From: Escherichia phage PTXU04
DNA: 61,600 bases
Sequence record: NC_048193.1
Strand: one strand, 5' to 3'
This document shows, piece by piece, positions 12,626 through 18,134 of the stretch. Position 1 is the first letter of the stretch; each line of letters opens with the position of its first letter. The notes beneath the pieces were generated by a model. That model made no database searches. It was not told the origin of the DNA and saw only the letters and a program-made list of their open reading frames with translations. The translations under genes and the position numbers were made by a program.

Positions 12626-14896
12626 ATGGCTAATTATGATCGCTTTGCATTGCAAGGTGGCCTCGACACGGCCACTCCTTATCTCAGCCGCCAGCCCGGT
12701 ACGCTGACTGCCGCCACAAACTTCTCCCCTGAGACGGATGGCGGCTATGCGCTTGAGGCTGGTTACGAACGTTTCGACGGTCAGCCAGCACCGAGCGAGA
12801 CTGTGGTGTACAGCCTCAACATGACGGACGATGTTACAGGTCTGCTACCGGGTGACGTTATCACAGGATCAACGTCCGGCGCGGTAGCAACTGTCGGCGC
12901 GGTTTTCGGTAAAGAAATCTGGTGTGATGTCACTAATGGTGTCACATTCATGCCGGGTGAGAATATCGGCGCTAACGTTATCGAGTACCTCTCAACGGAA
13001 GCTATTGACCAACGCAGCTACAGTCCGACAGCTACACGCACTACGATTCTGTTGATGTCACCGCTGGCGGCTAACACACTGGAAGTCGGCGATGCGTTAC
13101 TGGGCTTATCCTCAGCCGCTACAGTGGAAGTGAACATCATCAAAGTTACCAACGCTGACATGTGGGTATACGTGTCCACGCTGGCTGGCGCGGTGCAGAT
13201 TGGCGAGACGATGGTGAAGGGTGATGGTACCGAGTACAAGGTTAACGGTGAGTACGAAGTGGAACCTATGCTGGCCTCCCCGGATACTCCCGCAGGTGTC
13301 TTCTTTTACCTGAGCGAATTACGTCGCGCTAAGATTGGTGTGGTGCCGGGTATCAACAGTGTGCGCGGTGTATGGGATCTGGAAGGTGTCGTGTACTCGT
13401 TCCGTGACGCTGACGCCGACAGCACCAAAATGTACCGCAGTACGGTGACAGGCTGGCAGGAAGTCGACCTGGGCTTTACGATGGGATGGGATACGCGCCC
13501 GTCTACAACCACTGACGATGAACTCGGTCCGGGTGATTCAATCCGTGGTGTGACGTCCGGCGCTACGGCAACCGTCGGCTGGGTAGGTTACATCGCTCAG
13601 GATCACTCGTCAGGCTACCTGACGTTCACCAACGTGACCGGAACGTTCCAGGCGGGTGAAGTAATTCGCAACGACACGTACAGCGTCGACATTGGTGAAG
13701 TGACTGCGGCGGCCACGGCTAACGTACTCCCGGCTAACGGTCTGTACCGTTTCACCAACCACAACTTCTTCGGCGGTCTGAACACCTTCGCAATGTACGG
13801 CGTGAACGGTGTCGGTAACGGTTTCGTATACAACGAGACGAACGGCTTCTCATTCATCCCGACGCAGGCAGATACGGATACACCGTTCGACGTGGTTGAA
13901 TACAAAGACCACTTATTCTATGCGTTCCCGAAAGGTAGCCTGCAACACAGCGTGCTGGGTAGTCCGATGGACTGGAGCGGTGGCCTCGGCGCACTGGCGG
14001 TCGGCGTAGGTTCGGAAATCTCTTCACTGATTCCGGCACCAAAATCGCTTATTATTTGTACAGAGAAAGACATCCAAAGTCTTGAGGGGAGCAGCATCGA
14101 TGACTGGCAAAAAGAGGTTATTACTCAGCATACTGGTATCTCTAAATTTACTGGGGTGTACCAGTCTCAATCACTCGTACTCGCCCAGGCAGGTATCATT
14201 AGTATCGACCGGACTGACCAATTTGGTAACTTTAGCGACGGTACTATCAGCGACATCATCCGAGACACCATCGTACCTAACTATTCTCGCTGCACTTGCG
14301 CAATGGCAAGGAAGAGTCGAGGGCAGTACAGACTACATTTCGAGGGAGACGTCAACATTGCCCTTTCCACTAACCAGGGGAATGTGATCGGCTTCTCGAT
14401 GTTTGACTACGGCGGTCTGACGGTGCGTACGGCGGTCAACCCGTACGGTCGTATCTTCTTCATTTCGGACACCGGATACGTCTATCAGGATTCCGTAGGG
14501 GCCAGTAACGATGGTGGTGAACGGTCATCTGTATTCCGCACATCCTTCGCCAACCAGGGTGACCCGGATACTCGCAAGCGGTACCGCCGTATGGACATGA
14601 GTATCCGTGCTCAATCTTACCTTAACGCGCGTGTCGTTTTCTCGTACAATAAAGGCGCATCCACGCCGCAGGCATCGGTCGAATCTGGCCTGTTAGTGTC
14701 CGGCGGCGGACGCTGGGATTTGTCGCTGTGGGGGCAAGTCTACTGGGATGCCACGGAAAACCCGACAATCTCGTCTGACATTGACGGTTTAGGTTTTGAC
14801 ATCAGCACCATGCTGTACATCCGGTCACGAATCCATCCGCAGTTTACCGCAGAGGATTTATCATTCGAATGGTCACCACGTAGAAAGGTACGATAA
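12626..14896 (+). CDS. virion structural protein (tail tube B-like by position)
   Basis: 756-aa beta-rich protein between the 220-aa protein and the fibers. Confidence 0.45.
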   Translation: MANYDRFALQGGLDTATPYLSRQPGTLTAATNFSPETDGGYALEAGYERFDGQPAPSETVVYSLNMTDDVTGLLPGDVITGSTSGAVATVGAVFGKEIWCDVTNGVTFMPGENIGANVIEYLSTEAIDQRSYSPTATRTTILLMSPLAANTLEVGDALLGLSSAATVEVNIIKVTNADMWVYVSTLAGAVQIGETMVKGDGTEYKVNGEYEVEPMLASPDTPAGVFFYLSELRRAKIGVVPGINSVRGVWDLEGVVYSFRDADADSTKMYRSTVTGWQEVDLGFTMGWDTRPSTTTDDELGPGDSIRGVTSGATATVGWVGYIAQDHSSGYLTFTNVTGTFQAGEVIRNDTYSVDIGEVTAAATANVLPANGLYRFTNHNFFGGLNTFAMYGVNGVGNGFVYNETNGFSFIPTQADTDTPFDVVEYKDHLFYAFPKGSLQHSVLGSPMDWSGGLGALAVGVGSEISSLIPAPKSLIICTEKDIQSLEGSSIDDWQKEVITQHTGISKFTGVYQSQSLVLAQAGIISIDRTDQFGNFSDGTISDIIRDTIVPNYSRCTCAMARKSRGQYRLHFEGDVNIALSTNQGNVIGFSMFDYGGLTVRTAVNPYGRIFFISDTGYVYQDSVGASNDGGERSSVFRTSFANQGDPDTRKRYRRMDMSIRAQSYLNARVVFSYNKGASTPQASVESGLLVSGGGRWDLSLWGQVYWDATENPTISSDIDGLGFDISTMLYIRSRIHPQFTAEDLSFEWSPRRKVR

Positions 14897-16521: not shown

Positions 16522-18134
16522 GTAACCAATATTACAACTTTATCAATCCGGCTGAAGCGGGTACGATTGTCGACCCGTTCGACTACAACCGTGAGATGGA
16601 AAAGATCACCGAGGCTTTCTCGGTGGTCCCGCCTGCTTCCCAGTTAACTTCCGGTACCCTGAACTACTCAACGGATACGGGTACCGGGAATGATCACATC
16701 GCCACGCTGGATGACTTTGATACCGACTATGTTGCCGGGAGTAACGTTGCGCTCCGAATCAATGACGCGTCTACCGGACCGTCTACCCTGAGTGTAAACG
16801 GGCTGGCCGCTAAAGACGTCACGCTGTCTGTGTTCGGCGCTGTGGCGGCAGGTGACCTGTTTGCTGAAGGTGTCTATACCTTCGTATTCAACGGTGAGCG
16901 TTTCCAGATTCTGGAGATGGGCGCACGCTATTACACTACCGCCTTCGAACAGCTTTCAATCGCCCAGGCTAAAGCTGCACTCGCGGCGGCCAGTGAAGCT
17001 GCGGCACTGAGTGAGCGTAACGCAGCAGCAGCGTCGGCGGCAAACGCCCTCACGTCAGCAAACGCTATTACCGCGTCCAAAGATGCAGCAGCAGGTAGCG
17101 CTACGTCTGCGGCAAACTCTGCGTCGGCAGCAGCAGGTAGCGCTACGTCTGCGGCAAACTCTGCGTCGGCAGCCAACACCTCTGCGGTCAACTCCGCGTC
17201 AAGCGCAACGGCGGCGGCAAACTCCGCAACGGCGGCGGCAAACTCCGCGACGGCTTCCGACGCCAGCGCAACGGCGGCGGCAAACTCCGCAACAGCAGCA
17301 GCAGGTAGCGCGGCGGACGCAGCAACTTACGCACAGGAAGCTATCGACATCGTTAACGCGCCGAACTTTCTCGACCGCGTGCAGGCGGCTATTCTTGAAC
17401 TGGAACTGTTCCCCGGCTGTACCGAGTTCTTTGACGCTGACATCGATCCTAACGTTAAGTATCCGGGTACCACATGGGTACGCTTACCAGCGTCGACATC
17501 ATTACGTATGTCCAACGCCACGGGCAGTGACGTTAACGGAACGACAGGCGCTGACAGTGTGACACTTTCGACAAACAACCTGGCCTCGCACAACCATTCA
17601 GTGACAATGGGTACCGTGAGCAGCACCGACCTGGGTACCGACACTCTGGCATCTGTTGACCTGGGTACCGACACTCTGGCTAACACTACCATCGCAGCGA
17701 AGACCACATCCAGCTTCGACTATGGTACCAAAACGGCATCAGGTTACGATCCCGGTGCGATTTCCACCAGTGGTGCTGGCGGCCACAGTCACACGTTTAC
17801 GGCGTATACCGCAGACGGATCGGGAGTGAGAATACGCTCAGCAGCGAACGACTCGACGTCTGCGGGTAACGTCACCACATCAAGTGCTGGTAACCACACG
17901 CACACTGTAGCTTTAGGTGCGCACACGCACACTGTAGCTTTAGGTGCGCACACTCACACCTTCCCGGTCGGCAGTCACACGCACACTGTAGCTTTGGGAG
18001 CGCACAGCCACACAGTGGCTTACGGCAGTCACGGACATAGTGCCACATTGTCGTTAAGCAACACTGGTTCCGGTACGTCCTTTGGCGTGGTAGAATCGTC
18101 TCTAATCTTAGTTGCATGGTACAGGAGCGCATAA
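16518..18134 (+). CDS. tail fiber-like protein 2 (paralog of 14896-16521)
   Basis: 538 aa; N-terminus [15 protein letters not shown]; Ala/Ser repeats including a perfect 42-bp tandem DNA repeat; C-terminal [26 protein letters not shown] repeats. Confidence 0.6.
   Translation: [538 protein letters not shown]
17089..17172. repeat. perfect 42-bp tandem duplication inside fiber gene 2
   Basis: cagcaggtagcgctacgtctgcggcaaactctgcgtcggcag occurs twice back to back (17089-17130, 17131-17172). Confidence 0.7.

Follow-up and report, generated by a model that had tools for sequence, protein, structure and literature searches.

The structure of the receptor-binding tip of the T4 long tail fibre, formed by gp37, was reportedly described by Bartual et al. 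in 2010 (PDB code: 2XGF). This type of tip is well known, and two adjacent fibres that both end in a gp37-like tip have already been solved in phage Bas63 (PMC12609058). In the Bas63 report, the chain of a gp37-type tip is described as doubling back at a small head, so that the needle is six-stranded and the C-terminus returns to the collar (PMC12609058). T4 gp37 uses the chaperones gp38 and gp57A, and the lambda side tail fibre Stf uses Tfa. Here, we analyze a stretch of 61,600 nucleotides (nt) of Escherichia phage PTXU04 (NC_048193.1; the whole stretch is referred to as the window), with a focus on two adjacent genes, gp17 and gp18, whose products are called F1 and F2 below. This podovirus is the type phage of the genus Xuquatrovirus (PMC6563267); published annotations label gp17 and gp18 only as "hypothetical" or "virion tail protein (ambiguous)". 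We consider it very probable that F1 and F2 are two paralogous receptor-binding tail fibres of this phage, with gp37-type tips and a build of exchangeable modules.

The gene of F1 (541 amino acids (aa); 14896-16521) and that of F2 (538 aa; 16518-18134) both lie on the + strand, as do the genes gp4, gp15 and gp16 described below, and both products match tail-fibre PHROGs (E = 1e-29 and 4e-21, respectively). The start and stop codons overlap at the F1/F2 junction (ATGA), and the F1 start overlaps the upstream gp16 gene by 1 nt. The two proteins share 53% identity over their C-terminal 267 aa (E = 2e-82) and 34% over their N-terminal 137 aa (E = 1e-26), which bears out the first-pass annotation, where two adjacent paralogous fibre genes had been called at exactly these positions. 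F2 is 100% identical to PTXU04_00018, and the source data of the CRISPRi-ART knockdown study print the F1 sequence under the name PTXU04_00017. The sole near relative in the phage collection is Pondi (91.5% nt identity over the fibre region), whose counterparts are annotated as "long-tail fiber protein gp37" and "stf tail fiber protein". The tandem arrangement of F1 and F2 downstream of an SU10-type adaptor and a protein of about 760 aa is kept in all seven complete loci examined.

We describe the distal half of the two proteins first. In F1, a collar domain of the T4 gp10/gp12/gp37 type (aa 299-357; 15790-15966) is followed by an outgoing needle strand that aligns to 2XGF (aa 358-429; 15967-16182), in which the first two His-x-His (HxH) motifs, at residues 362 and 426, flank five 10-aa repeats of the TSSSFDYGNL type encoded by a 30-nt repeat family at 15991-16170. 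After a hypervariable segment comes a returning strand, aligned to the gp37 motifs, with six HxH motifs at 9-aa spacing (aa 461-512, motifs 463-508; 16276-16431), and finally a C-terminal segment that ends in the strand ...ILVGWRRTA and would lead back to the collar (aa 513-541; 16432-16518). The order is the same in F2, with the anchor and bead at aa 1-133, the shaft at approximately 136-294, the collar, which precedes the needle here as well, at 295-353, the outgoing strand at 354-426, the head at 427-457 (17796-17888), the return strand at 458-509 and the C-terminal end at 510-538. A phmmer search against the PDB matched the T4 gp37 tip 2XGF with both F1 (E = 4.9e-13) and F2 (E = 2.8e-13), in alignments that extend over non-histidine stretches as well as the HxH motifs, and tblastn with full-length T4 gp37 matched its residues 880-1010 to F1 (E = 7e-19, 42% identity) and F2 (E = 2e-16, 39%). 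By tblastn, lambda Stf orf-314 also matches F1 (E = 5e-19) and F2 (E = 2e-18). No Pfam family gave a hit above threshold for F1 or F2. The collar-needle-head module was found in 504 phage records (tblastn, E ≤ 1e-8), mostly among Felixounavirus and T4-like fibres with 33-36% identity, and the tip module in 338 database proteins (E < 1e-6), many of which are Enterobacterales prophage fibres of approximately 300 aa that span the whole module.

Each fibre carries eight HxH motifs (at 358, 423 and 460-505 in F2), which contain 16 of its 17 histidines and of which six, near the C-terminus, follow a strict 9-residue (27-nt) spacing; shuffled sequences gave about 0.5 HxH motifs, with maxima of 5-6 in 20,000 trials. 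When 22 family members are aligned, six of the motifs have invariant histidines and the remaining two have histidines conserved at 90% or more, while the neighbouring residues vary. Exactly eight motifs in a 1+1+6 layout are present in all 14 fibres from seven phages; in the wider family, the count ranges from four to nine and the 9-residue spacing dominates. The matches to 2XGF and gp37, together with the invariant histidines, indicate that the resemblance to the T4 tip is a true homology. The first-pass annotation had likened the HxH repeats to the T4 needle and had proposed an alignment against the gp37 tip; that alignment confirms the likeness for both fibres.

The position of the apex is a different matter. 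The segment between the second and third HxH motifs (F1 aa 430-460; 16183-16275), which we predict to be the distal receptor-binding apex and refer to as the head, varies strongly: homologues from the more distant part of the F1 clade (P0002-P0013) are 0-21% identical to F1 in this segment, while the histidines flanking it are invariant. It aligns to the gp37 segment lying between the third and fourth HxH motifs of the T4 tip. At the other end of the module, W537 and R539, at the extreme C-terminus of F1, are invariant in the 22-member alignment. The AlphaFold 2 (AF2) monomer model contains outgoing and returning strands and gives the C-terminal strand a predicted local distance difference test score (pLDDT) of 95; in the full-length monomer, the needle scores below 50, and confidence for the head is low. 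Natural stub versions are provided by phage HelliStehle (Bas95, PQ850607.1, our L011), which is strictly O-antigen-dependent. At the same locus it has two overlapping genes (16328-16987 and 16984-17631 of that record) encoding proteins of 219 and 215 aa, Bas95_0020 and Bas95_0021, which are orthologues of F1 and F2 without shaft, needle and head. What the stubs still have in common with F1 and F2 is the anchor and bead (54% and 44% identity, respectively), the beginning of the collar and, at the very end, the motifs GWRRTA and LVAWIRRL, a composition that fits what would be expected if needle and head formed a hairpin excursion. Altogether, a hypervariable segment in the middle of the module, an invariant C-terminus and the stubs are indirect evidence that makes a return strand the best reading of the C-terminal histidine array. 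This array had been taken for the distal tip in the first-pass annotation; under gp37-type geometry that placement does not hold, and the receptor-binding apex is best read as lying about 100 residues before the C-terminus, at aa 430-460 in F1 and 427-457 in F2. Note that metagenomes contain other stub-sized proteins, namely P0235 and P0286 (229 aa each) and P0300 (187 aa).

Upstream of the collar, F1 aa 140-298 (15313-15789) form a repetitive shaft. Its DNA has a periodicity of 21/42 nt and encodes about 20 uninterrupted heptads in which alanine occupies 86-95% of two core positions, with a periodicity of 3.5 residues, so that the Ala/Ser repeat shafts described earlier for both genes are real. 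In the AF2 monomer model, the F1 shaft is a single 144-residue helix (140-283) plus a short one (286-298), with a pLDDT of 70-82. Since the rise of a coiled-coil helix is approximately 0.148 nm per residue, the model indicates an Ala-core coiled coil, predicted to be triple, of roughly 21 nm. The perfect 42-bp duplication that had been noticed in the DNA is present in the F2 shaft, where 17085-17126 equals 17127-17168; it belongs to repeat family D1 and comprises two heptad pairs, and from 17085 onwards 47 consecutive positions match exactly at period 42 (feature 17085-17173). The polar heptad positions differ between the F1 and F2 shafts. Both shafts weakly match the T7 gp17 fibre (7BOZ), with E = 0.054 for F1 (chain residues 163-265) and 1.7e-4 for F2.

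Several side observations concern these repeats. In Pondi, an exact word of 63 nt is common to the F1 and F2 shafts (gene nt 628 and 637, respectively), which suggests a recent exchange between paralogous repeats; the longest word shared by the PTXU04 genes is at most 17 nt. The F2-type homologue P0018 shares 96% identity with PTXU04 F2 over the anchor and shaft but only 45-75% over the tip module, clearly a modular exchange close to where the shaft meets the collar. Finally, GC skew is -0.08 across both fibre genes (14000-18000), and the Ala/Ser region harbours long extra open reading frames (ORFs) in other frames or on the opposite strand, e.g. 15276-15653 (- strand) and 17011-17562 (+ strand); we take the negative skew and the extra ORFs to be by-products of GCN/ACN-rich repeat coding sequence, the ORFs being judged by eye not to be genes.

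The N-terminal part consists of two pieces with very different distributions. The first 44 residues of F1 (14896-15027) constitute a lineage-specific anchor, presumed to be the tail-docking segment, which is kept in the HelliStehle stub Bas95_0020. A word-indexed homologue search with the anchor returned three matches only, and an exhaustive search with aa 1-143 as query was used instead. Apart from a small set of proteins with lengths of 187-925 aa, none of its matches includes the whole anchor starting at residue 1, so the same anchor bears differing distal modules. The region that follows (aa ~45-140 in the exhaustive search) occurs in approximately 8,860 representative proteins, often as 3-14 tandem copies. 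It corresponds to a generic fibre module, a β "bead" (F1 aa 45-135; 15028-15300; AF2 pLDDT 72-87), which matches residues 242-324 of the Pa193 tail fibre gp47 (9B45; phmmer against the PDB, E = 6e-7). The Pa193 paper describes residues 1-340 of gp47 as three "beads-on-a-string", and we place the matching residues in the third bead. The N-terminus is the best conserved part among F1 orthologues (68% identity; 46% in the F2 orthologue group), and its retention in both stubs supports the view, already put forward in the first-pass annotation, that the similar N-termini attach the fibres to the virion. The anchor would thus presumably dock on the tail.

These data can be combined into a model. The anchor (aa 1-44) and the bead (45-135) would fix each fibre to a tail with an SU10-type portal and adaptor; about 20 Ala-core heptads would form a rigid triple coiled-coil shaft of approximately 21 nm; and a collar of the gp10/gp12/gp37 type would lead into a gp37-type needle. 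Each needle chain is predicted to run out, with two HxH motifs flanking the 10-aa repeats, to turn in the hypervariable head and to run back with six HxH motifs, its C-terminal strand packing against the collar. If the homology with T4 gp37 extends to metal binding, six histidines from the three chains would meet at each HxH level and bind one axial metal ion, so that eight ions per fibre might staple the six-stranded needle together, while the head at the hairpin turn would contact the host surface. Each fibre is most likely a homotrimer; metal binding and the identity of the metal, the geometry of the hairpin, the docking site and the receptor are what we infer from these comparisons.

The published CRISPRi-ART knockdown with BL21 as the host speaks for this model, with gp17 scored "Fit" and gp18 "Semi-Fit" (PMC11879866); gp16 was scored "Fit", and gp4 and gp3 "Semi-Fit". 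Some points weigh against the model. Since translation of gp16, gp17 and gp18 is coupled, polarity may account for part of these knockdown phenotypes. Peptide fingerprinting of PTXU04 virions assigned only gp7, gp10, gp11 and gp12 (PMC6563267). Searches for a chaperone of F1 and F2 of the gp38, Tfa or S74 kind found none: tblastn revealed no homologue of T4 gp38 or lambda Tfa in the whole window (all E > 2; gp57A was not searched for), Pfam and PHROGs gave no chaperone family hit in the flanking genes, and the Pfam domain Peptidase_S74 is absent from both fibres and present only in a third one, gp4. A dedicated chaperone, however, is an accessory feature of some gp37-type tips and does not define the fold.

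Why two fibres? One answer, which we find nearly as plausible as its converse, is that F1 and F2 recognize two different receptors, so that the host range of the phage would be dual or wider. In its first half, VPAIIGTGTTPSLK, the F1 head is strongly unlike its F2 counterpart, and the same sub-segment separates the PTXU04 heads from their Pondi orthologues, as a specificity loop would. In four more distant phages, the F1 and F2 heads are unrelated (9-22% identity), and the BL21 knockdowns of gp17 and gp18 differ in outcome ("Fit" and "Semi-Fit", respectively). On the other hand, the two PTXU04 heads are 52% identical overall and near-identical in their second half (SAANDSxSAGNVxTSS); the corresponding within-phage values are 55% in Pondi and 77% in contig L002, to be compared with about 17% between orthologues of different phages, and this likeness within a phage suggests a shared or related ligand in the clade. 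The earlier proposal that the tips differ, hence that there are two specificities, is not established: the first half of the heads does diverge, but the second half is near-identical. Judging from the sequences, a different fine specificity of F1 and F2 is possible. Note that recent gene conversion between the paralogous heads was considered and rejected: where the heads have the same amino acid, the third codon positions are 53-62% identical, no more than elsewhere in the gene, and the heads share no long DNA words.

A second answer concerns the tail rather than the host. The gene of the head-to-tail adaptor gp15 (11960-12622), a likely fibre-docking platform, keeps its place two genes ahead of the fibre pair throughout the relatives and encodes an SU10-type protein (Pfam SU10_adaptor, E = 3e-11); the portal is also of the SU10 type (Pfam, E = 6e-34). 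Between gp15 and F1 lies gp16 (756 aa; 12626-14896), a conserved tail protein that overlaps F1 by 1 nt, is 51.5% identical to HelliStehle Bas95_0019 and, from its conserved synteny, is a possible nozzle-position protein. SU10 has six long fibres attached to its adaptor, and its nozzle carries six short ones (PMC9509320). By analogy, F1 and F2 could occupy two docking sites, one on the adaptor and the other on gp16, and act in turn, with reversible binding followed by irreversible binding or triggering, as do the long and short fibres of SU10 or T4. We regard this scheme as tentative and somewhat less probable than a division of labour between receptors. Besides the SU10-type portal and adaptor, it draws on the divergence of the two anchors, which are only about 31-34% identical to each other while each is conserved in its own orthologue group (68% and 46%), as fits distinct partners, and on the retention of both stubs in HelliStehle. 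It is opposed by the equal length of F1 and F2 (541 and 538 aa), which do not make a long and a short fibre, and by profile searches: a profile hidden Markov model (HMM) of the gp16 family revealed no similarity to the SU10 nozzle protein (gp17), and an anchor-family profile HMM gave nothing significant against the SU10 proteins, including gp12 and gp16; only the portal and adaptor are of the SU10 type. In the PDB, PTXU04 gp16 has no sequence match.

A more far-reaching version of this scheme is speculative, and we think it unlikely to hold as a whole. The needle-head hairpin may be a self-contained cassette held between the collar and the C-terminal return strand. Such a cassette could grow when repeats are duplicated in step on its two strands, could be exchanged, or could be taken out cleanly, for which the HelliStehle stubs would be the example. 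In that case, the anchor-bead-collar stubs would be obligatory structural parts of the podovirus tail and more than the roots of fibres, and the equally long fibres would form two interleaved sets of six at distinct docking sites on an SU10-like tail, taking part in the triggering or formation of an ejection nozzle in addition to host recognition.

That F1 and F2 co-assemble into heterotrimeric fibres is quite improbable. The ATGA overlap implies that the two proteins are probably co-translated in a fixed ratio, and they have near-identical lengths, the same HxH register (with a 3-residue offset throughout) and the same heptad count. However, their anchors are only 34% identical, the polar heptad positions of their shafts differ, and F2 needles carry indels relative to F1 in distant relatives; moreover, known gp37-type tips are homotrimeric, as reported for Bas63 (PMC12609058) and predicted for the annotated tail fibre of HelliStehle (BASEL paper). 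The reading that the HxH arrays and Ala/Ser repeats are a low-complexity coincidence in proteins that are not metal-binding fibres can appeal to the compositional bias of the region, the weak similarity to T7 gp17 and the lack of a Pfam hit above threshold, but it is effectively refuted by sequence comparison, as eight HxH motifs were never reached by shuffling, the 2XGF homology goes beyond the histidine motifs, the histidines are invariant across divergent relatives, and the complete module recurs in more than 500 phage records annotated as fibres. We therefore retain the model of two paralogous, most likely homotrimeric, fibres with gp37-type tips.

Further genes of the window deserve mention. 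The third fibre with a chaperone domain that had been placed near the terminase is gp4 (3561-5009), which matches a tail-fibre PHROG (E = 3e-43) and carries a C-terminal intramolecular chaperone domain (Peptidase_S74, aa 373-425, E = 8e-9); the terminase gene (992-2623) adjoins, as had been said. The N-terminal ~160 aa of gp4 are homologous to the HelliStehle fibre Bas95_0006 (E = 5e-13 over ~155 aa), and Bas95_0005 also matches the gp4 N-terminus (E = 4e-10, ~90 aa), pointing to a second fibre-anchor family near the terminase (4044-6435 in HelliStehle). The C-terminus of gp3 (2683-3519) matches a tail-fibre PHROG (E = 1.5e-20), and, by eye, gp3 and gp4 start with a similar domain of about 50 aa. 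On the other side of the fibre pair, gp19 (18134-19267, 377 aa; its start is at 18116 in the ORF list and at 18134 in the published annotation) is Gln/Asn/Ala-rich and contains three internal repeats, QxxNQASQFxxSLxEQIRSGKV. Searches of gp19 against family databases gave no hits, its published knockdown was strongly "Fit", and a role as tail needle or ejection protein is conceivable. In each of the complete loci of relatives, the gene after F2 is of similar size (approximately 295-440 aa); in HelliStehle it encodes Bas95_0022, a homologue of gp19 (E = 6e-64). Further downstream, gp25 (22651-29283, ~2,200 aa) is described in the literature as a putative polyvalent protein and as essential ("Fit"), and a CsrA homologue is encoded just downstream of the structural module (PTXU04_00028, "Semi-Fit" in the published knockdown; Pondi_00074 at 17153-17353 of the Pondi contig, L001).

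The podovirus genus typified by PTXU04 is poorly understood, and the domain map names the likely determinants of the phage's host range, F1 aa 430-460 and F2 aa 427-457. The map also aids the interpretation of the published knockdowns and defines module boundaries that can be used in fibre engineering, and the HelliStehle stubs add natural evidence for the gp37-type hairpin topology. The general understanding of phage fibres is unchanged by these results. Compared to the known systems, the combination of an SU10-type portal and adaptor, a gp37-type tip and an Ala-core coiled-coil shaft in one podovirus appears to be a new arrangement of known modules.

Module by module, the closest counterpart is the T4 gp37 tip, with the order of collar, six-stranded HxH needle, small head at the turn and return to the collar that we predict for the PTXU04 fibres. 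The homology is direct (E ~1e-13 to 1e-19, ~40% identity over 130-160 aa), and the 9-residue unit GxHxHTVxh is shared. The two tips differ in their histidine layout, with eight HxH motifs in PTXU04 (two outgoing and six returning) and seven in T4 (three and four), and in the outgoing strand, which in PTXU04 is lengthened by the five 10-aa repeats; the head sequences are unrelated. Furthermore, the PTXU04 tip is borne by a 540-aa podovirus fibre with a coiled-coil shaft, whereas that of T4 belongs to a 1026-aa distal half-fibre of a myovirus. Another T4-like relative is gp267, the long tail fibre of the T4-like (S16-like) myovirus CkP1 of Citrobacter, whose gp37-like needle has eight HxH motifs, the same count as in PTXU04 (PMC10175313). 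CkP1 gp267 decorated host cells without co-expression of gp268, its neighbour in the gp38 position, which provides a precedent for folding without such a partner (PMC10175313); its N-terminal part is very unlike that of the PTXU04 fibres.

The closest parallel to the pair is found in the Felixounavirus Bas63, where the adjacent genes of the short tail fibre (STF) gp26 and the long tail fibre (LTF) gp27 both encode gp37-like collar-needle-head tips with 6-7 HxH motifs and where a structurally conserved N-terminal attachment domain is present in both fibres (PMC12609058). Felixounavirus fibres are also the nearest cultured-phage matches to the PTXU04 tip module (33-36% identity). Bas63, however, is a myovirus with a baseplate and fibres of unequal length (430 and 630 Å), whose shafts consist of β-helix and triple-helix-turn elements, whereas PTXU04 is a podovirus with equal fibres built on Ala-core heptads. 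The C-terminal module is likewise homologous to that of lambda Stf (orf-401/orf-314) and of the ~300-aa Enterobacterales prophage fibres (Gp10_C or Collar), many of which are 30-48% identical; these proteins have PF08400 or P2-type N-termini, and lambda encodes Tfa (orf-194) just downstream, whereas the PTXU04 fibres have an anchor of their own and no detectable Tfa. Finally, T7 gp17 (7BOZ) resembles F1 and F2 in being a podovirus fibre in which an N-terminal tail-binding part is followed by an α-helical coiled-coil rod, but F1 and F2 lack the Phage_T7_tail domain (PF03906), the weak match between the shafts mainly reflects their composition, and there is no relationship between the distal domains.

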